A DNA stretch of 18,367 nucleotides, taken from UHGV virus genome UHGV-1667981, one strand, 5' to 3'. Both the position numbers and the translations under genes were made by a program. Under the pieces are notes generated by a model. It ran no database searches and had not been told where the DNA came from. It saw nothing but the letters and a program-made list of their open reading frames with translations. Numbering within the stretch: position 1 is the first letter of the stretch; each line of letters opens with the position of its first letter. This DNA comes from a virus. Shown here piece after piece: positions 4,957-18,367 of the stretch.

Positions 4957-4971
4957 CCGTGACCAGTCACG
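4957..4971. promoter_or_regulatory. Palindrome CCGTGAC-CA-GTCACG (copy 1 of 2); candidate regulator binding site
   Basis: 14-bp core CGTGACCAGTCACG; its reverse complement CGTGACTGGTCACG recurs at 14594..14607 inside a longer 20-bp palindrome. Sits directly upstream of the SD of the 4706..4948 gene. Confidence 0.35.
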
Positions 4972-7524: not shown

Positions 7525-7801
7525 CCTCTCTGATTTCCAAGTAACGCTTAATCCAAAGATTTTCTATATGCTTATTACCTGGCTGATTTGATAAATACCA
7601 ATCGGCAATTACAGACTGCTTATTACTATCTGGTCGTGTCCTGTAACCACAAGTTGGACACCAGATAACATATTCATTTCTTACCCCCGAATACCTTAAT
7701 TCTGGCTTCGACGGTTTCCTGAACATAACTTGTTTACAAAGGCAGAATGGCACTTCCTGCCCTATGGCGTTTGATGATTTCACTGCGCTTCTCCGCCGCA
7801 T
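7481..7801 (-). CDS. Hypothetical Cys-rich protein (106 aa), possible zinc ribbon
   Basis: ORF track 7481..7801(-); FCLC...WCPTCGY cysteine pairs. C-terminal codons GCG ACC GTG GTC GCA CAA (ATVVAQ) are the 18-bp palindrome. Overlaps the upstream gene by 68 nt at its 5' end, so the start is uncertain. Confidence 0.4.
   Translation of the reverse strand: MRRRSAVKSSNAIGQEVPFCLCKQVMFRKPSKPELRYSGVRNEYVIWCPTCGYRTRPDSNKQSVIADWYLSNQPGNKHIENLWIKRYLEIREGATVVAQENENNAI
7507..7524. repeat. 18-bp palindrome GTGCGACC-AC-GGTCGCAC (copy 2 of 3, opposite orientation)
   Basis: Exact reverse complement of the 18-mer at 3128..3145. Lies at the overlap junction of two minus-strand ORFs. Confidence 0.5.
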
Positions 7802-8444
7802 TTAATAATGCAGTTCGATTTAAGCTCAGACATCGCGACTTAATTAAAAGCCAGCGTTCTTTATAATCTTGTCTCCAGCTATCAATAGATATATTCAGTA
7901 GAAAACTCAGATGCCTGTCCTGTTCTCTCTCATCAACTGCCTCAGCACACGTAAGTTCTGATTTAACCTGCTGTGCCGCGTAATAAATCAATTTCCGCAT
8001 GGCTTTTTTCGTGGAGGCCTTCATTTTTTTAAAGCCGCCCCCCGAATGAGCAACCAGAAAATCAAGCCATAACCACTGACAAACAATCACATCATTGTTG
8101 TAATCAGGCTTGCATCCGTAGCAATAATAAAGCCAGGCTGATTCCTCGTTATTCAACTGACCAATAGCCCTGCGCCAGCTGGCGCTCTGAAAATCAATAT
8201 CAGTGAGCAACATTGATGATTGTTTAAATGTTTTCCCCTGATGGAATCTAACCGGCTCAGCAGGAACGGACACTTCGTATGAGTTATCATCCCCCACACT
8301 GATTGACCGGACTGGTTTATAGTTAAACCGTCCTGACCTACCGAGACGCATCTGCTCAAGCTGGACCTCCAGAATGCCACCCTGGCGATAATGAACATCA
8401 GCCAATGCCGTAGAGACGCAGCTGCGTATATACTCAAGCTCCAC
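7734..8444 (-). CDS. Hypothetical protein (236 aa); candidate Q-like late regulator by position downstream of cro
   Basis: ORF 7734..8444(-), GTG start preceded by AAGGAG. Several Cys (YYCYGCKPDY). Function is inferred only from synteny with the N15-type immB order (cB, cro, Q) as recalled; no motif-level support. Confidence 0.5.
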   Translation of the reverse strand: MELEYIRSCVSTALADVHYRQGGILEVQLEQMRLGRSGRFNYKPVRSISVGDDNSYEVSVPAEPVRFHQGKTFKQSSMLLTDIDFQSASWRRAIGQLNNEESAWLYYCYGCKPDYNNDVIVCQWLWLDFLVAHSGGGFKKMKASTKKAMRKLIYYAAQQVKSELTCAEAVDEREQDRHLSFLLNISIDSWRQDYKERWLLIKSRCLSLNRTALLNAAEKRSEIIKRHRAGSAILPL

Positions 8445-8655
8445 GCTTACTACTCTCCTTAATCGACTGCTTTACCCGCCGAGTTGTAAAGTCACTCTTC
8501 AGCTTATAAGCAGTACGAACTTCAATATCGCTTTGCCGCAATGAAGGAATCTCTCCAGCGGTTAACCATTGGTAAACAGCTCCGGGTGTTACACCTACCC
8601 CTGCCGCTGCTTTTTCTACACTGCCAAAATGGCGAATAAGTTCTTCTGGTTTCAT
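8434..8655 (-). CDS. Cro-like HTH regulator (divergent from the repressor)
   Basis: ORF 8434..8682(-); first ATG at 8655 gives MKPEELIRHFGSVEKAAAGVGVTPGAVYQWL, an HTH-like segment. Divergent from the CI-like gene across an operator-containing intergenic region. Confidence 0.7.
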   Translation of the reverse strand: MKPEELIRHFGSVEKAAAGVGVTPGAVYQWLTAGEIPSLRQSDIEVRTAYKLKSDFTTRRVKQSIKESSKRGA

Positions 8656-8682
8656 GTTGTTATTATAAACAATAAACAACAA

Positions 8683-8724
8683 TTAAAGCCAGCTATAACA
8701 AATAAATTTTATAGCCAGCTATAA
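8683..8724. promoter_or_regulatory. Two operator-like sites in the cro/repressor intergenic region: TTAAAGCCAGCTATAA (8683..8698) and palindromic TTATAGC-CA-GCTATAA (8709..8724)
   Basis: AGCCAGCTATAA repeated directly at 8687 and 8713 (26-bp spacing); the second copy has 7-bp inverted arms. Located between divergent HTH regulator genes, the classic position for operators. Confidence 0.55.
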
Positions 8725-8746
8725 GAAGATCATTTATGATTACAGT

Positions 8747-9343
8747 ATGAAAACACGAGGCGAACGACTGAAAGCACGCCGTTTAGAGATGAAGCTGACG
8801 TTGCGAGAAGTTGCTGAGGCTGTCGATATCTCTATAGCAGGCGTCCAAAACTTAGAACGTGGCGACGTAATGCCGTCACTGGAGATAGGTATTGCCCTGG
8901 CTAAGTGCTTACGCAAGCCAGTGCATTGGGTGCTATATGGGACAGAATATGACCCTGATCGCATTCCTGTTATTGGCACAACTGAAAGTGGGCCAGATGA
9001 AGAGTGGAAGCCGGGACAGGTTCCAAATACTGAGCGATTCCTGCCATTCATCAGCCAGCGCAATACTGTGTATGCGTTAACTATCAGCAATCTTACGCAG
9101 GGAAACTATCAGCCAGGCGATTTTCTCCTGGTCGATTCTGCGCTGGAACTGGTCCCCGGCGAGGATGTTCTGGTTCGTGATACTGCAGGAAATATCACTA
9201 TCCAGCGCCTGGCCCGTTTTGATGATGAAAATTACTATCTGGATGGAACAAACTCACAACGCGCCATCTTCAGGAAAAGCGATCTTGAATTTGTTCACCA
9301 AATAGTCGGAACGATCAAATCATTCATGGTTGAGGGTAGATGA
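8747..9343 (+). CDS. CI/CB-like prophage repressor: N-terminal XRE-type HTH plus C-terminal LexA/S24-like domain
   Basis: ORF 8747..9343(+), 198 aa. HTH region LTLREVAEAVDISIAGVQNLERG; C-terminal PGDFLLVD...GEDVLVRD resembles the S24 fold. No obvious Ser in a G-x-S-M context, so autocleavage may be absent. Confidence 0.85.
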   Translation: MKTRGERLKARRLEMKLTLREVAEAVDISIAGVQNLERGDVMPSLEIGIALAKCLRKPVHWVLYGTEYDPDRIPVIGTTESGPDEEWKPGQVPNTERFLPFISQRNTVYALTISNLTQGNYQPGDFLLVDSALELVPGEDVLVRDTAGNITIQRLARFDDENYYLDGTNSQRAIFRKSDLEFVHQIVGTIKSFMVEGR

Positions 9344-9442
9344 CTTAATACGGGGTTTATTGTTTGCTGTAAATCTGGTTTAATGCAGGGCATATGTTCT
9401 GTGGGTTGACTCAGGTTACAGCAGCAGAAAAAAGACGAAAAA

Positions 9443-9471
9443 AACCCGAGTCGGCAAACTCGGGTCCTTTT
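9443..9471 (+). terminator. Intrinsic terminator downstream of the repressor gene (8-bp stem ACCCGAGT/ACTCGGGT, 6-nt loop, T-tract)
   Basis: acccgagt-cggcaa-actcgggt then ccTTTTc; preceded by an A-tract, so it could act bidirectionally. Confidence 0.6.
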
Positions 9472-9587
9472 CAGGAAGCAGCCACAACAAAGCGACGGAT
9501 TCCGTCAATCAAAGATGCGTTTATTGTGGCTGCTCCTGCGGATTTTTTCAACCCGAAAAAACATAATTCGCATGGAATGGCTAAAAA

Positions 9588-12500
9588 ATGACATTAAACG
9601 ATTTCTATGCGGATCGCTTTGGCAGCGATCCGTTCTCGCTAATTGAAGCAGCACGGGATGAACTAACCGAGCTGGCACAGATGGCTGGTATCAACTGGCC
9701 TGCCTGTTCCGACAACATCCAACTCAACCCTCGCGGGGGTGTTGAGCGTTACTCTTCATACAATAAAACATCTCCAGAAGCTCTCGAGAAGAGCCTCAAA
9801 GGACGCGTAGAAATTTACTCCCGGCTGGAACACAGCAAAGGGATTGATTATCCGTTCATTAACTTCGTCCATAAAGGCAGCGATGCTGGCTCATGGAGCG
9901 GTTTCTCCTTCCTGTTTTCTGAATATCGCCGTGAGCAACAGCGGAATAATGCGACCGTGGTCGCACAACCGGAAGAAGAACGGGCAAGAATAGAACGTCA
10001 GGCCGAAGCACGTCGTCGCCGTGAAGAACAAAAACGAATTAATGACCTGAAAAACAACCAAATGGACCATGAACGTTTGCTGGGATGGCTGGCATTTCAC
10101 AGCGCGTGGGAACATGCTCCTGCAGAAGACGGCTCGTGGCCATATGCGATTAAAAAAGGTATTCGTGACGTTTTTAATTCGTGTGATGTGCGTCGCGTGA
10201 CCAGTCACGACAGCGCAAAATGGAGCAGGGGGCCAACCACGTATATGGCTATCCCTCTGGCTCACCTGGACGGTCGTTACGATGGTCGTATTGTGGGTTG
10301 GCAGCGAATCGACAAACAAGGTGGAAAATACCAGACCAGCGCCGTAACCAGCGGCGATTTCGTCGGTGCCTGCTTTGTTATCGGTGAGCTAAAAGGGGCG
10401 CAAAACATCGCTGTTACAGAAGGTTTTGCTACTGGTGCATCCATCTGGCTTGCCACGAAAAAAGATAAACGCTTTGACGCTGTGGTTGTCGCTGTATCCG
10501 CTAACAACATGGTTCATGTTGTGGAACAACTGGTAAACATGTACCCGGCGGCAAAAATCACCTGCGCACTGGATAATGACAGGAAATCAGCTACAGAAGG
10601 AAAAGGGAATACCGGCCTGCGGACTGGCTATGAAATCTTATCGAAATTCAACGATGTCCGCTGCGTCTATCCAACTTTTGAAGACGATCCGCAAATGGAG
10701 TGCAGTGACTTCAACGACCTGCACAAACTACGTGGACTTCGTGAAACAGCACGTCAACTGTTTGCAACTGCAAACCGCCTGAAAACTGGCACTGATTTGC
10801 TATCTCTGACGCTCAACCGCCTGAAGACAATTAAGCGGGATAACCGTCGTACTTTTGCCAAAGAGCTGCTGAGAGCGGTGGATATTGGCATGCTAACCTG
10901 CCCGGTTCCTAACAGTCCGTCAGATTTATTTAACATGTTCTGCATCGTTCTGCGTGAAATGGGACTGGAAAATATCTATCGCGCTACGGTAAAAGACCAC
11001 ATTGCCCGTCGCCTGAATAAAAAGTGCCGTATTGCCCAGGCTCCGCGCTCTTTCAGCGAACGCATAACTGATCCCAATAAACGCCCTCAACATATCACCT
11101 ATAAGCGTTTTGAAACTTCGGTAATGACCGATGATGTCCTGAAGTACGTGCAATCACTACAGGGGATAGTCATCGTCCGTGCTGGTATGGGTTCCGGCAA
11201 ATCTACTGGATTGTTACGACCGTTAATGCATAGCTCAGAACGTGGTATCTCTGTTGCTCACCGTGTCTCCCTTATTGGTGGCCTGTGGGAAATGATGACA
11301 GAAGGAAAAGGTGTAAAAGCCGATATCCTGCACTATCAGGACCCTGGCTATCAGGAAATGGCTCCATACGCCAGTAAACTGACCATCTGCATAAACTCGA
11401 TTGTTAAAAACTGCTGGCAACCGTTGATGCGCCAGCACGACTATTTTGGCTTTGACGAGGCCACGCAAGGGCTACGTGCCGTTCTTTCCGGTCGGGCTAT
11501 GGAAAACCCGGTTGCTGTATTCAATACGCTAATTGACGCGCTGGCCAGAACGGAACAACACCCAATCATGGTGGATGCTGATGCGAACGATCTACTGGTT
11601 GACCTGGCTGAACTGGCTATGAAACGCCGTGAAGAACTAGGTTTACCGGCATGGCTGCAGATCCACGTAATTGAATTACCTGTTGATGTTTGCAACCGCG
11701 AAACAGGTGAGCCAATCCGGGTTTTTTATACAGAAAAAGATCGCATCATGACCGAGGTGGTGAAAGCTGTATCGGATGGCGAAAAAATCATGTTGGCCAC
11801 CGACAGCTCCACCTTTGCAGAAGATGTGACAGCCACCCTGAGAATGCATTTTCCTGGTAAGAAATTTCTGTGTGTAAACCAGAAAAACAAACCAGAGCCA
11901 GAAGTTGAAGCATTTACCAATCAACCGAAAAAGATGGTCAAAAAATACGACGGCCTGATTTATAGCCCGTCTATTTCATCCGGCGTGTCGATTGAGCAAA
12001 AACATTTTGACCGTCATTTCGGCATGTTCTGTGGTGAAGTTGTACCCAGCGACGCAGTGCAAATGCTACGCCGCGACCGTACAGCAAAAGAATTTATTAT
12101 CGGCTTTGATAAAGCTCGTGCAAAACGTGAAACTGACCCGCAAAAAATAGAACGAGCATTCGCCCAGGCATTGCTTGCTACCGCAGGTATGAACGGTGAA
12201 CTTACGGATGTCGTTTTCGATGGCGACCGTATATCAATGGGGGTGGCCAATACCGACTTTACCAGGATGAAAATTAAAGCAGCCGCAATTGAAGCGACTG
12301 CGCGTAACGACTACGCCAGCAACATGATCTGCATCATGCACAGCGACGGTTATAAGGTATCACCGCTGGCCACCGATTATGCTGCGAATGATATCGGTAA
12401 AGATCTGCGTAAAGAAGCGCGGGATATTGTGTGGGAACAGACACTGGATCTGCACCTCAATACAGAAACTCCACAAGAATCAGAGCGTGAAGAACTGCTA

Positions 12501-13583
12501 AAAAAACGCGCGCTGACGCTTGAAGAACAGGCAAAACTTGTCCGCTGGGATATTGAAAACGAACTGAAACTACCGGTTGAAGAAGGCACGCTGAAATTCT
12601 ATTTCGATGGTGCTCGAGACAAAGTTCGCCGCTATGAAACAATGCTTTTAGATGAGGTAACAGCTCGTCGTTACGACCGGGAAGAAGCAGCCATCAATTT
12701 TACCTACGCATACCGTCAGGCGGGACAGTGGCAATATTTTGTAGTGACCGCGATGACTCGCGAGCAGGCTGATGATGTCTTTAAAACTAAATTCCCTGGA
12801 ATAATCGATCACAAGGTAAAAGCTACTCCTACTGTTGAAGTCGGGGCGCGCGGTTTCTATGCGCTTAAATCAGCAACTCTCCGGCAGTACTTTATCGACT
12901 GCGGTATCAACCCTGAAACTATGACCGGCGAGGCGACTCAGGAGCGTCTCAAATTCGCTCGAGATAACCTCATGACAGCCGAACGCCGTGACCTGTTGAA
13001 TAACGTTCTGCACATTGGTGGTTTTATGACGCCAAAAGGGAAGCCTAAAGTGCCGGAAGCGTTGTTTAAAAACATTTGCGACTCTCTTGGCCTTAAAACA
13101 GGTAAACGTCGCGGCAGAGACGGCGATAAGCGTCCAACCTTGCGTTTTGTTGAGCCCGAATCAGCGGCATTTATGCTGGATATTCTTGTTCAGCGTCAGA
13201 AAGATGGCCTAACCCTAAAAACGCGTAAAGCCGAGAAGACAGCCATCGAAATGGATCGCGATTTGGATCTCAATATATATATGGATGATAAAACGCGATC
13301 CACAAACGAGCAGGTTCAAAACGCCCCTCATTCAGTAATTTCTGAGGCTTTGGCCGTATTGCCGGTGGCTGTTCCTGAGTCCTGGGCGATGAGTGCGCTT
13401 TCCGGTGAGGAGCTGGCCACTATGTCATCATGGTCATCAACCAGCATAGCTATGACGTTTGCATCTCTGTACCTCACAGAGTTCATGGATCACTTGTCCA
13501 GCAATGAACTGCGGCGGTTACGAGAATACATTACCGGGAATAGCTCATGCAGCTACGAAGAGCAGGGCGCTTTCTATGGGTAA
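9588..13583 (+). CDS. repA: Multifunctional replication protein, primase-helicase (N15 RepA-type, 1331 aa)
   Basis: ORF 9588..13583(+). TOPRIM-like primase signature (AVTEGFATGASIW ... CALDNDRKS) in the N-terminal third; Walker A RAGMGSGKSTG and Walker B-like FGFDEATQG in the middle. Size and architecture match N15 RepA (about 1300 aa) as recalled. Confidence 0.9.
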   Translation: MTLNDFYADRFGSDPFSLIEAARDELTELAQMAGINWPACSDNIQLNPRGGVERYSSYNKTSPEALEKSLKGRVEIYSRLEHSKGIDYPFINFVHKGSDAGSWSGFSFLFSEYRREQQRNNATVVAQPEEERARIERQAEARRRREEQKRINDLKNNQMDHERLLGWLAFHSAWEHAPAEDGSWPYAIKKGIRDVFNSCDVRRVTSHDSAKWSRGPTTYMAIPLAHLDGRYDGRIVGWQRIDKQGGKYQTSAVTSGDFVGACFVIGELKGAQNIAVTEGFATGASIWLATKKDKRFDAVVVAVSANNMVHVVEQLVNMYPAAKITCALDNDRKSATEGKGNTGLRTGYEILSKFNDVRCVYPTFEDDPQMECSDFNDLHKLRGLRETARQLFATANRLKTGTDLLSLTLNRLKTIKRDNRRTFAKELLRAVDIGMLTCPVPNSPSDLFNMFCIVLREMGLENIYRATVKDHIARRLNKKCRIAQAPRSFSERITDPNKRPQHITYKRFETSVMTDDVLKYVQSLQGIVIVRAGMGSGKSTGLLRPLMHSSERGISVAHRVSLIGGLWEMMTEGKGVKADILHYQDPGYQEMAPYASKLTICINSIVKNCWQPLMRQHDYFGFDEATQGLRAVLSGRAMENPVAVFNTLIDALARTEQHPIMVDADANDLLVDLAELAMKRREELGLPAWLQIHVIELPVDVCNRETGEPIRVFYTEKDRIMTEVVKAVSDGEKIMLATDSSTFAEDVTATLRMHFPGKKFLCVNQKNKPEPEVEAFTNQPKKMVKKYDGLIYSPSISSGVSIEQKHFDRHFGMFCGEVVPSDAVQMLRRDRTAKEFIIGFDKARAKRETDPQKIERAFAQALLATAGMNGELTDVVFDGDRISMGVANTDFTRMKIKAAAIEATARNDYASNMICIMHSDGYKVSPLATDYAANDIGKDLRKEARDIVWEQTLDLHLNTETPQESEREELLKKRALTLEEQAKLVRWDIENELKLPVEEGTLKFYFDGARDKVRRYETMLLDEVTARRYDREEAAINFTYAYRQAGQWQYFVVTAMTREQADDVFKTKFPGIIDHKVKATPTVEVGARGFYALKSATLRQYFIDCGINPETMTGEATQERLKFARDNLMTAERRDLLNNVLHIGGFMTPKGKPKVPEALFKNICDSLGLKTGKRRGRDGDKRPTLRFVEPESAAFMLDILVQRQKDGLTLKTRKAEKTAIEMDRDLDLNIYMDDKTRSTNEQVQNAPHSVISEALAVLPVAVPESWAMSALSGEELATMSSWSSTSIAMTFASLYLTEFMDHLSSNELRRLREYITGNSSCSYEEQGAFYG
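9950..9965. repeat. Palindrome TGCGACC-GT-GGTCGCA (copy 3 of 3), inside repA coding sequence
   Basis: Shares the 16-bp core gcgaccgtggtcgcac (9951..9966) with the 18-mer at 3128..3145; 7-bp inverted arms here, because the flanking base is A rather than G. Encodes ATVVAQ in the repA frame, the same peptide the copy at 7507..7524 encodes in the 7481..7801 ORF. Confidence 0.5.
13252..13302. other. Candidate internal replication origin element within the 3' part of repA: 9-bp inverted repeat flanking an (AT)n tract with three GATC sites
   Basis: tggatcgcg (13252..13260) and cgcgatcca (13294..13302) flank atttggatctcaatatatatatggatgataaaa. GATC at 13254, 13266 and 13297. Confidence 0.35.
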
Positions 13584-14530: not shown

Positions 14531-14591
14531 TGCCCTCCAACAGCTGATCAGGTTCTGATCAGTTAGTAAAGCAAACTATAAAAACACCTGT

Positions 14592-14611
14592 CCCCGTGAC
14601 TGGTCACGGGG
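14592..14611. promoter_or_regulatory. 20-bp perfect palindrome CCCCGTGAC-TG-GTCACGGGG (copy 2 of the GTGAC-N2-GTCAC motif)
   Basis: 9-bp inverted arms; core matches the reverse complement of the site at 4958..4971. Lies at the entry to the structured region upstream of the antirepressor operon. Confidence 0.4.
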
Positions 14612-14637
14612 TAAAATGTCTTTTCAAATTATTGACG

Positions 14638-14746
14638 TGTGCGTCGTTTTGACGGTAAAGTTACTTCGCTGCGGTAAATCCCGTAGCCGGGACTCTCAAC
14701 CCCGAAATCCGAACGACGCACAACACGCGCCAGCGTGTTTTTTTGT
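14638..14746 (+). ncRNA. Candidate structured small RNA or leader (c4/CA-RNA-like) ending in an intrinsic terminator
   Basis: Long-range stem gtgcgtcgtt (14640..14649) pairs with aacgacgcac (14712..14721), enclosing about 60 nt. Followed by terminator hairpin aacacgc-gcca-gcgtgtt plus T-run (14722..14746). No credible coding ORF here. Identity as a regulatory RNA is inferred from position and structure only. Confidence 0.35.
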
Positions 14747-14844
14747 GTGTATGAGCCTGCGCATATCCGAATTATGGTGGCTCAGGTGGGGCAGCCGAAA
14801 GGCTGGCCGGTGTCGTTTGGGCCGGTGTTGAGAACCCCGCTTGG

Positions 14845-14890
14845 GCTACCACCCCATAGAGATTCTCAACTCTGGTGGTAGCACTGTTTT
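14845..14890 (+). terminator. Attenuator-like hairpin (9-bp stem GCTACCACC/GGTGGTAGC, 20-nt loop) followed by TTTT, just upstream of the antirepressor operon SD
   Basis: Loop contains TTCTCAAC, which is complementary to GTTGAGAA at 14827..14834 and is also repeated (CTCTCAAC) at 14693..14700. T-run starts 4 nt after the stem. Confidence 0.35.
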
Positions 14891-16257: not shown

Positions 16258-18177
16258 TTAGCCGAAATATGTCAGCCATGCTAACTGCATTGCTGACATG
16301 GGGCTGTTTGCACTGCCTGACCACGCATAATTCTGGCCATTATAATGAAACTCGACAACGTATGAGCCATCACCAATATTTCTCACTGGCTTAAATACCG
16401 GCTTAGATACAGGCGAAGAAGGTGCGGGTGGCTGCTGTTCTTCTACGCTTTCTTCCTCTTCCTCTTCCTCTTCCTCTTCCTCTTCCTCTTCCTCTATCTC
16501 AATTTCGTCGTCATCCAGATCGTCATCATCTGATAATTCATCCGCCTGTTCAGGTATTGCTTCCAGCTCTTCTTCGTCAGGCATAACGATTTCTGGAGTA
16601 TCTATTTTCAGCTGCCATTGTCCATTTTCGCCAACAAATTGCCCCAGAGCATCAGCAGCAAATTCCAGGTATCGACTAATCATTGTTGGGCTAAATTTGA
16701 ATGCTCTTAGCGTGCTGTTCGTGATTTTTATAGAGGGGTCCTGCTCTACCAGCTGCTTAACTGTGTTATGCAGACGAACCCCGGCATCTCCTCTGGCGAA
16801 TCCAGGCATTTCGTCATCAAGCTGCTGCAATGCTTCCAGCCTGGTATTTTCGTTTCCAGTATTTGGCCTCCATGTCTTTGAGAAGTTGGCCAGCTTGAAT
16901 TGCTTATAGTGTAATTGAGTGTTTTCATCGTCATGGCCTAAAATTTCCATAAAGAAAACATCCTCATCTACGTTTTTCCAACGAGGATCTACGCGGAAAA
17001 ACATTTCATACGCAATACGGGCATAAATAGCACGACTATCTTTATAAACACGGCGGTCATCTTTGAAAAATGATTTAACCCACGGGTTAAAAGCCTTTGC
17101 TAATATGGCATTAATACGTCCGTTTTCAGAGCGTGTGTCGTTATCTCCATAACCTTTAACGACATCATCAAAATCAGATGCTGCTGGGCATGATCGAAGT
17201 ACATTTATTAAATAAACAAATGTTTTTGCTTCGCATAATGTATATATTTTTCTGGTTATATCATCAGAAGTTCTTTTTTTAGCTTGGCCTAAAAAATCAA
17301 CGGTATACTTACCAGAAACAGTAAATGTACCTTGATACATAATCTCAATCATTCGTCTTCCTGACAATGCAGCAAGTGCAAATGCCAAAGGAGCCATACC
17401 TGAACGAGTGTTTAGATTATTTAATGTAGCAGGGCTATTTATAATATCGTAAATAGCTTGCATATATTTAGGGTAATCAATGACCACCACGTTACGTTTC
17501 TTATTGTGCAGAACGTCTGCCCATCGTTGCTGGATAGATGCGCGTTCGGCAGGGCTTAGTTGAAGATGATAGAGAATCTCATGGTTAACTTTTAGCTGAT
17601 TCAACTCCTCAAGCAAGGCAGATCCTTGCTGTAGTAATTTATATAAATAATCGCGCTTATCTTTCCAGTTATCGCTAGTTAAATCAGAAATGGCGAATTG
17701 CCACTCTTTATATTTATTTGATAATTTTAATAACTTATTATGACTTTTGTTATCACCAATTCTGATATTAGATAAATCTTCTGATAAAGGGAGAATTAAT
17801 TTTAATTTTGCCTGTAAAGCTGACATTCTCTGGCGAATATCGGCAGCAGGTAGAGAAAGCCATGATAATAGCTCCTCATTATATAAAGGATACTTTTCAG
17901 ATAGGCGATGTATATTTTTTTCAAAGCTATGATGAAGTTTATCATCAAACCGTTTTCTGGCCCTGCTCATATAGGTATTGAATGTGTTGGCTGTAATTCT
18001 TTTTTCTAATCCTTTCCCCCTAAACTTTCGCTTGTCATTAAATAATGCATTTTTAAATTTTAATGCAACAGCCTTTATTTTTTTTGTTTTTTCTCCTTGA
18101 GGACGGTCAGAGTTATCTATTGACTCAACATCGCTAACAAGTGAGTTTATTAATTCACCGATTTTTACTTTTCTCAT
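16258..18177 (-). CDS. telN: Protelomerase (telomere resolvase, TelN/TelK family)
   Basis: ORF 16258..18177(-), 639 aa; strong SD GGAGAGGAAAG upstream. Recognised from memory as closely resembling N15 TelN / phiKO2 TelK along its length (e.g. MRKVKIGELIN..., RSGMAPLAFALAALSGRRMIEI, ILGHDDENTQLHYKQF). Adjacent to a telomere-palindrome half-site at the window end. No alignment was run. Confidence 0.9.
   Translation of the reverse strand: MRKVKIGELINSLVSDVESIDNSDRPQGEKTKKIKAVALKFKNALFNDKRKFRGKGLEKRITANTFNTYMSRARKRFDDKLHHSFEKNIHRLSEKYPLYNEELLSWLSLPAADIRQRMSALQAKLKLILPLSEDLSNIRIGDNKSHNKLLKLSNKYKEWQFAISDLTSDNWKDKRDYLYKLLQQGSALLEELNQLKVNHEILYHLQLSPAERASIQQRWADVLHNKKRNVVVIDYPKYMQAIYDIINSPATLNNLNTRSGMAPLAFALAALSGRRMIEIMYQGTFTVSGKYTVDFLGQAKKRTSDDITRKIYTLCEAKTFVYLINVLRSCPAASDFDDVVKGYGDNDTRSENGRINAILAKAFNPWVKSFFKDDRRVYKDSRAIYARIAYEMFFRVDPRWKNVDEDVFFMEILGHDDENTQLHYKQFKLANFSKTWRPNTGNENTRLEALQQLDDEMPGFARGDAGVRLHNTVKQLVEQDPSIKITNSTLRAFKFSPTMISRYLEFAADALGQFVGENGQWQLKIDTPEIVMPDEEELEAIPEQADELSDDDDLDDDEIEIEEEEEEEEEEEEEEESVEEQQPPAPSSPVSKPVFKPVRNIGDGSYVVEFHYNGQNYAWSGSANSPMSAMQLAWLTYFG
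16448..16495. repeat. Hexanucleotide microsatellite (TTCCTC)x7 encoding a poly-Glu run in the protelomerase C-terminal region
   Basis: Seven perfect tandem TTCCTC units at 16454..16495 with partial flanking units; on the coding strand this is GAG/GAA giving EEEEEEEEEEEEEEEE. Confidence 0.9.
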
Positions 18178-18340: not shown

Positions 18341-18367
18341 AATCAGCACATAATTCCCCATTATACG
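18341..18367. other. Telomere-resolution site half (telO-like): AATCAGCACATAATTCCCCATTATACG, ending at the palindrome centre
   Basis: The final 10 bases CCATTATACG are the left half of the N15 telO core CCATTATACGCGCGTATAATGG as recalled; the preceding ATCAGCACATAAT resembles the flanking N15 telRL arm. The window stops exactly where the palindrome would turn. Confidence 0.65.

Follow-up and report, generated by a model that had tools for sequence, protein, structure and literature searches.

The window, as the whole 18,367-bp stretch of virus genome UHGV-1667981 analysed here is termed, presents a plasmid-prophage context of protelomerase, repA and hairpin telomere. According to the ORF list, repA (1331 aa; homologous to N15 gene 37 and phiKO2 gp35) lies on the plus strand at 9588-13583, and the protelomerase ORF (639 aa) on the minus strand at 16258-18177. 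The 3' end of the window, ...CCATTATACG, lies 1 base before the centre of the telomere palindrome of PhiR46_1 and N15 (the terminal letters at 18350-18367 read ...CCCCATTATACG, and the 22-bp palindrome of both phages is CCATTATACGCGCGTATAATGG), so that the contig ends at the hairpin telomere. Its gene content and this telomere end identify the window as the arm next to the telomere in a linear plasmid-prophage of the N15 kind.

Escherichia phage YDC107_1 shows 99% identity to the window (99.1% over positions 8000-10000). Over the same interval PhiR46_1 reaches 97%, and N15, phiKO2 and also several relatives from Klebsiella and Enterobacter about 76%. When 5,426 complete E. coli genomes were searched, 17 had close matches to the window, all 21 matching places being plasmid-borne. 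Operators are not annotated in this region in the GenBank records of YDC107_1 and PhiR46_1, and a literature search for the lineage returned nothing on the YDC107/PhiR46 immunity region. The YDC107_1 record (CP025712.1) repeats, from about 36,900 on, the protelomerase-repA-cB arm in mirror image, its CDSs there being fragmented in many places, and sopAB is missing from it; the record looks less like a real genome than like an assembly that ran on across the hairpin telomere.

Upstream of repA lie the genes of an immunity region of the immB type. The prophage repressor gene cB (8747-9343, plus strand, 198 aa) encodes a protein 78% identical to N15 CB, with an N-terminal Pfam HTH_3 domain (43.5 bits) and a C-terminal domain resembling Peptidase_S24 (21.3 bits, under the 23.3 cut-off). 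Divergent from it is the lytic repressor gene cro (8434-8655, minus strand, 73 aa), whose product shares 87% identity with N15 Cro, shows the all-alpha P22_Cro fold (79 bits) and matches the N15 Cro structures PDB 2HIN and 6ON0 with E = 2e-32. Its recognition helix, residues H0-H8 (TPGAVYQWL), is identical to that of N15. Translation of cro begins at the ATG at 8655 and not at the TTG at 8682 given in the ORF-finder listing. Downstream of cro, and also part of immB, is the antiterminator gene Q (7734-8444, minus strand; Phage_antiter_Q, 278 bits), in a gene order that matches N15 and phiKO2.

The ATG annotated as the cB start in N15 (protein start MIKGMKTRG) is out of frame in the clade of the window owing to a 1-nt deletion (region 8736-8749). 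This ATG at 8736 leaves a mini-ORF of four codons (ATG ATT ACA GTA TGA), the stop of which overlaps the cB ATG. As the 8736 ATG is out of frame here and in frame in N15, MKTRG is the conserved cB start.

Between the cro start codon (CAT, 8653-8655) and the cB ATG at 8747 extends an intergenic region of 91 bp with 24% G+C. The 12-mer AGCCAGCTATAA occurs in it twice (8687-8698 and 8713-8724), 26 bp from start to start, and the second copy sits in a 16-bp palindrome of 7-2-7 architecture, TTATAGC-CA-GCTATAA (TTATAGCCAGCTATAA, 8709-8724). Both elements had been described in the initial annotation, and a repeat search carried out without prior input retrieved the same direct repeat of 26-bp period and the same palindrome. 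No further copy of AGCCAGCTATAA with at most 1 mismatch is found in the 18,367-bp window (0.08 expected from shuffles). The first copy is part of an imperfect 16-bp palindrome as well (TTAAAGCCAGCTATAA, 8683-8698), with 1 mismatch relative to the second.

In a region so rich in A and T, such features might be chance repeats, or promoter hexamers of the TATAA-type -10 class, and no protein sites at all. The palindrome by itself lends this reading some ground: arms of 7 nt appear in 7% of the shuffles of the 91-bp region and are thus only mildly unusual in DNA of this composition, and the sites do overlap -10-like sequences. The direct repeat behaves otherwise. Repeats of at least 12 bp appeared in just 53 of 20,000 shuffles of the region (0.27%) and, being so rare, the observed one is beyond chance.

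Comparison with relatives points in the same direction. The cro-cB region aligns without gaps to those of N15 and phiKO2, and this alignment reveals a third, more diverged 16-mer that was absent from the initial annotation (TTATTATAAACAATAA, 8660-8675), opposite the N15 OR1 of U45242 (TTATTATAATCAATAA) and differing from it at 1 of 16 positions. A perfect TATAAT hexamer (8667-8662, minus strand), the -10 of cro, lies within the overlap with this 16-mer. The 16-mer at 8683-8698, holding the first copy of the 12-mer, is the positional orthologue of N15 OR2 (TTAAAGCTAGGTATAA, 2 of 16 positions different) and of phiKO2 OR2 (TTAAAGCCAGGTATAA), and is a near-copy of OR3. The one at 8709-8724, with the second copy, lies directly upstream of cB and is OR3: its sequence is the same in N15 and phiKO2 and, indeed, in all 8 aligned sequences (the window and seven phages). 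OR1, OR2 and OR3, none of which has a strand, thus form three 16-bp imperfect palindromes that preserve T-A-N10-T-A, the motif common to all known operators of this kind (PMC4997575), with starts 23 bp and 26 bp apart as in N15. The N15 immB record U45242 annotates OR1, OR2 and OR3 between cro and cB, and OL1 and OL2 between cB and repA, as binding sites of CB.

To avoid circularity, loci for a conservation analysis were gathered through the CB protein and not through the motif, which yielded 51 loci with 25 distinct 83-nt OR segments. Their taxonomic spread derives from IMG/VR together with the phage collection, since a scan of the GTDB species genomes with the CB alignment gave one locus, in Pseudocitrobacter. 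Across the 25 distinct segments, invariant columns amount to 42 of 48 within operators versus 14 of 35 in spacers and flanks (Fisher p = 1e-5); OR1 contributes 13 of its 16 columns and OR3, in these loci chosen by protein similarity, 15 of 16. The OR spacings are constant in all loci, and the variation within operators concentrates mostly on the central four positions, which correspond to bp 7 and 8, the base pairs that N15 Cro does not contact (Hall et al., PMC6649833). Operators in which conservation far exceeds that of the intervening spacers, an OR3 invariant in surroundings only about 76% identical, and orthologous sites that are bound in vitro and co-crystallised with Cro all speak against the chance reading, which is effectively refuted by this conservation and by the published binding on the identical sequence.

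Position 8699 of the window is a C, versus a T in all 50 other loci sampled. At the right-hand end of OR2 it replaces TATAAT, a hexamer marked in the N15 annotation as the putative -10 of a cB promoter, by TATAAC, and could either weaken cB expression in this element or be a sequencing error.

A candidate cB promoter picked up by a promoter scan, TAGCCA-17-TATGAT (8712-8740, plus strand), lies over OR3, at the -35 and -10 positions given for N15 in U45242, and would yield a nearly leaderless cB mRNA. Similarly, the -10 candidates TATGAT (8735-8740) and TATAAT (8667-8662, minus strand) would lead to leaderless mRNAs, and no obvious Shine-Dalgarno sequence is seen at cB or cro. The promoter scan of the region found 2 promoters for 1.8 expected, with no enrichment over shuffles; promoter assignments are therefore made only by homology to the N15 annotation.

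For the orthologous sites of N15 and phiKO2, binding and function have been demonstrated by footprinting, EMSA and reporter assays (PMC4997575, PMC6649833). According to U45242 and PMC4997575, N15 CB is reported to bind all five operators, with footprints on the OR sites. phiKO2 CB likewise binds its five operators, OR1 being the strongest, and also takes OR1 and OR2 of N15, displaying a low sequence specificity that extends to heterologous N15 operators (PMC4997575). In reporter assays CB represses cro and Cro represses cB; phiKO2 Cro occupies OR3 only and represses cB but not itself (PMC4997575). OR3 is bound with a dissociation constant of 44 nM by phiKO2 Cro and of 90 nM by N15 Cro, which was co-crystallised with the orthologous site; with OR1 and OR2, N15 Cro gave no detectable complex at concentrations up to about 1 µM (PMC6649833). 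The initial annotation had placed operator-like sites between divergent repressor and cro-like genes, in agreement with these orthologies, but its implication that the cro-like protein uses both repeats is contradicted by N15 and phiKO2 Cro, both restricted to OR3.

Taken together, we give a probability of about 0.9 to the repeats being OR2 and OR3 which, with OR1, would form a tripartite operator between cB and cro-Q, in a circuit assigned by orthology. In that circuit, CB dimers would bind the three 16-bp imperfect palindromes over the cro/Q and cB promoters, switching lytic transcription off and making cB autoregulated, and OR3 is, by homology, the putative sole high-affinity Cro site. Cro would act essentially at OR3 only, adjoining cB, thereby repressing cB and leaving cro itself unrepressed.

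Induction would also be expected to follow the N15 type. Self-cleavage residues are absent from N15 and phiKO2 CB (PMC4997575), and the alignment of the window CB with LexA agrees with this. In that BLASTP comparison, which is weak (E = 0.19), LexA Lys156 falls opposite CB Gln153 (ITIQRL/VTVKRL), and LexA Ser119 opposite CB Thr117. A CB without the catalytic lysine of LexA would make induction proceed via an antirepressor and not by self-cleavage.

Downstream of cB, a second set of sites overlies the repA promoter. PL (9356-9384, plus strand) comprises a -35 TTTATT (9356-9361), a 17-nt spacer and a -10 TTTAAT (9379-9384), hexamers that are identical to those of PL in N15 (U45242) and invariant in the 8 aligned phages. 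At the position of N15 OL2 (TTATTGCTGACTATAA), overlapping the PL -35 and spacer, lies TTATTGTTTGCTGTAA (9357-9372, 4 of 16 positions different), and at that of N15 OL1 (TTAATCCGATCTATAC), overlapping the PL -10 and start site, the degenerate TTAATGCAGGGCATAT (9380-9395, 7 of 16 different); both are strandless. According to the initial annotation the 12-mer precedes neither repA nor the protelomerase gene. This holds for exact matches, which miss OL1 and OL2 because these homologues have diverged, but relaxed and matrix-based searches recover the related 16-mer at 9357-9372. No operator-like sequence was found upstream of the protelomerase gene.

The repA leader contains additional conserved elements. 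A bidirectional terminator (9436-9473, no strand), detected by a terminator scan and annotated in N15 and phiKO2, is nearly invariant in the alignment, and an antisense, Pinc-like promoter, TTGAAA-17-CACAAT (9551-9523, minus strand), is conserved. A 65-aa ORF (9394-9591) has no Pfam match, spans the terminator and the antisense promoter and is probably not a gene. The KpLi5 record annotates an ORF similar to it.

For a quantitative view, a symmetrised position weight matrix (PWM) was built only from the 10 operators of N15 and phiKO2 and scanned over the window, with shuffle maxima averaging 11.3 bits (95th percentile 14.9 bits). OR3 obtained the top score of the window (23.2 bits) and OR2 the second (21.2 bits), followed by a candidate 16-mer at 14566-14581 (14.2 bits); OL2 (13.15 bits) and OR1 (13.1 bits), equal to each other, completed the top five, and OL1 reached 5.1 bits. 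Scanned over the complete 46-kb PhiR46_1, the matrix gave its three highest scores to OR1, OR2 and OR3, and it found no further strong operator copies in the complete PhiR46_1 and N15 genomes. In the N15 genome, the weakest true site is outscored by four unrelated positions. Since the matrix fails to separate weak true sites such as OR1 and OL1 from the background, OR1, OL2 and OL1 are assigned by position.

The restriction of repressor control to the divergent promoters, as suggested in the initial annotation, would amount to operators acting on cB and cro only, with OL sites decayed and repA free of CB. Several features are consistent with this reading: no exact copy of the motif precedes repA, OL1 has a low score and three mismatches to the consensus in its right half-site, OL1 and OL2 depart from N15 at 7 and 4 of 16 positions, and the changes are fixed in the clade except for one central G/A polymorphism in OL1. 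Nonetheless, both 16-mers occupy the homologous positions with the 23-bp spacing of N15, over invariant PL hexamers, and both retain T-A-N10-T-A. Moreover, OL2 scores as OR1, the strongest CB site in phiKO2, and the CB of phiKO2, low in sequence specificity, accepts heterologous N15 operators. Thus, confinement of control to the divergent promoters is unsupported, with diverged OL homologues overlying a conserved PL, and an OL region released from CB appears unlikely. OL1 may be weakened in the clade, its role as a CB site being uncertain at 5.1 bits. In N15 and phiKO2, CB at OL1 and OL2 over the repA promoter lowers plasmid copy number (PMC4997575); under the orthologous circuit, CB at OL2 and OL1 over PL (9356-9395) would correspondingly set the copy number of the plasmid.

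The 16-mer at 14566-14581 (GTAAAGCAAACTATAA) is intergenic, lies upstream of the immA anti-immunity operon and is exactly conserved in N15 (28576-28591), phiKO2 and YDC107_1. By analogy with phage P1, where Op51 is controlled by C1, it could be a sixth CB site upstream of immA. As such it is not established: its 14.2 bits are below the 14.9 bits of the 95th percentile and hence within the chance range, its whole surroundings are conserved, and a distance of about 94 bp separates it from the inferred transcription start of immA, which lies downstream. Just upstream of it, at 14541-14561, are two copies of the 8-bp palindrome CTGATCAG, 12-13 bp apart, a pair that N15 and phiKO2 also have and that PhiR46_1 retains in part.

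Instead of a protein gene, the immA region has Rfam matches to an isrK-like RNA (14668-14743, plus strand, 54.9 bits) and a C4 antisense RNA (14770-14856, plus strand, 71.8 bits), which are predicted to constitute an RNA-based control of the antirepressor operon. A promoter TTGACG-18-TAAAGT (14632-14661) would set the transcription start near 14668, the first position of the isrK match. A 71-aa ORF (14616-14831), a hypothetical protein in YDC107_1, overlaps both RNAs and, given these Rfam matches, is probably non-coding. N15 vectors, normally at about 5 copies, reach about 50 when the antirepressor is expressed (PMC2847241). A different palindrome of 14 bp, CGTGACTGGTCACG, appears three times in the window (4958-4971; 10196-10209, inside repA; and 14595-14608) for 0.04 expected. 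It resembles the sequence GCGACCGTGGTCGC, annotated inside phiKO2 repA as a 'putative plasmid partitioning site', and its copies are probably dispersed SopB centromere sites of N15-type plasmids.

Within the conserved OR frame, OR2 exhibits lineage-specific alleles. Among 44 loci, 17 carry the window type (TTAAAGCCAGCTATAA), 19 the N15 type (TTAAAGCTAGGTATAA) and 8 the phiKO2 type (TTAAAGCCAGGTATAA). The window and phiKO2 types share a C at operator position 8 and are distinguished by a single G-to-C change at position 11; it is this C that makes the right half-site of OR2 the same as that of OR3 and so creates the 12-bp repeat. The window type is fixed in the clade of the window (17 of 17 loci). 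The clade is further characterised by Ile30-Ala31 at the start of the predicted CB recognition helix, aligned with Gln28 and Gln29 of the 434 repressor, versus Leu-Pro in every other relative sampled, even those with 44-53% identity. The OR2 allele, the Ile-Ala pair and the diverged OL2 and OL1 occur together in 17 of 17 loci which, belonging to one lineage, represent one evolutionary event and not statistical covariation. With Ile30-Ala31 in its helix, CB specificity in the window lineage could differ in detail.

These differences open a further reading, in which the switch of the lineage has shifted: Cro would bind not just OR3 but also OR2, and so repress the promoters of its own gene, and/or the Ile-Ala CB would define a separate immunity specificity, with a set-point of immunity or copy number distinct from N15. 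N15 Cro rejects OR2 because of one contacted-base change per half-site, at bp 4 and at bp 6 (Hall et al., PMC6649833). In the window the bp-6 defect has disappeared, the right half-site TTATAGC being that of OR3, and only the T-to-A change at bp 4 is left; the joint occurrence of the OR2 allele with the CB and OL changes fits this reading too. However, Gln H6 makes direct contact with bp 4 and Thr H0 a water-mediated one, the A-T to T-A swap at this base pair is named as disruptive, and Cro H0-H8 is unchanged. The half-site consensus of the window operators is unaltered (TTAT[A/T]GC), and the co-occurrence counts as one event, not 17.

Cro residue H9, which sits on the water network reading bp 3 and 4 (Hall et al., PMC6649833), is Thr in the window, Gln in N15 and Ala in phiKO2; the relatives as a whole show Q, A, H, S and T there. 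Its Gln-to-Thr replacement was considered as an adaptation to bp 4 of OR2 and rejected, as H9 varies freely while OR3 is invariant, and phiKO2 Cro, with its Ala, is still OR3-specific. The same two observations weigh against a shifted switch, which we regard as a doubtful, tentative proposal for both its Cro and its set-point components. If true, it would restore a lambda-like autoregulation of Cro that is absent from N15, phiKO2 and PY54. Regarding the favoured assignment, we infer for the window lineage the same circuit as in N15 and phiKO2.

Known systems offer points of comparison for this circuit. N15 immB (Lobocka et al. 1996; U45242, AF064539) has the same order Q-cro, OR, cB, OL/PL and repA, and has in common with the window the 16-bp operators, the 23- and 26-bp spacings, the PL hexamers, the leader terminator and the antisense promoter. 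They differ at OR1, OR2, OL2 and OL1 as detailed above, in the Leu-Pro pair of the N15 CB and in the upstream cB ATG, which is in frame in N15. phiKO2 immB (Hammerl et al. 2016, PMC4997575) shares OR3 and the five-operator layout but resides in Klebsiella, versus E. coli for the window, and has Ala instead of Thr at Cro H9. Its behaviour, with CB on five sites and Cro on OR3 only, is by analogy the best available model for the window. In the telomere phage PY54 (Hammerl et al. 2015, PMC4488713), Cro also acts on a single OR3 adjoining the repressor gene, and the OR3 core is closely related; PY54 has one operator between cI and cro, and repressors less than 40% identical, while the window displays the three-operator layout of N15.

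The lambda OR/OL system resembles the window in its divergent repressor and cro genes, in the three imperfect palindromes over divergent promoters, in a second operator set elsewhere and in the preference of Cro for OR3. Nonetheless, lambda operators are 17 bp long with their axis on a base pair, whereas those of the window have 16 bp and an axis between base pairs, and lambda Cro binds the three OR sites with graded affinity, unlike its N15 and phiKO2 counterparts. In addition, lambda OL controls N, while an OL of the window type is expected to control the plasmid replication gene. Finally, the lambda repressor undergoes RecA-stimulated self-cleavage through a Ser/Lys dyad, the lysine of which is missing from the window CB in the weak alignment with LexA.

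The repeats are viewed as orthologues of operators from a genetic switch that ranks among the better characterised ones outside lambda and, as such, carry little discovery value. Published EMSA and crystal structures were obtained with exactly the sequence of OR3, base for base, and the five operator positions and PL are transferable to the records of the lineage (e.g., YDC107_1 and PhiR46_1). Beyond annotation, the natural single-base variant of OR2 and the variant CB helix could serve to test the structural explanation published for why N15-type Cro ignores OR2.
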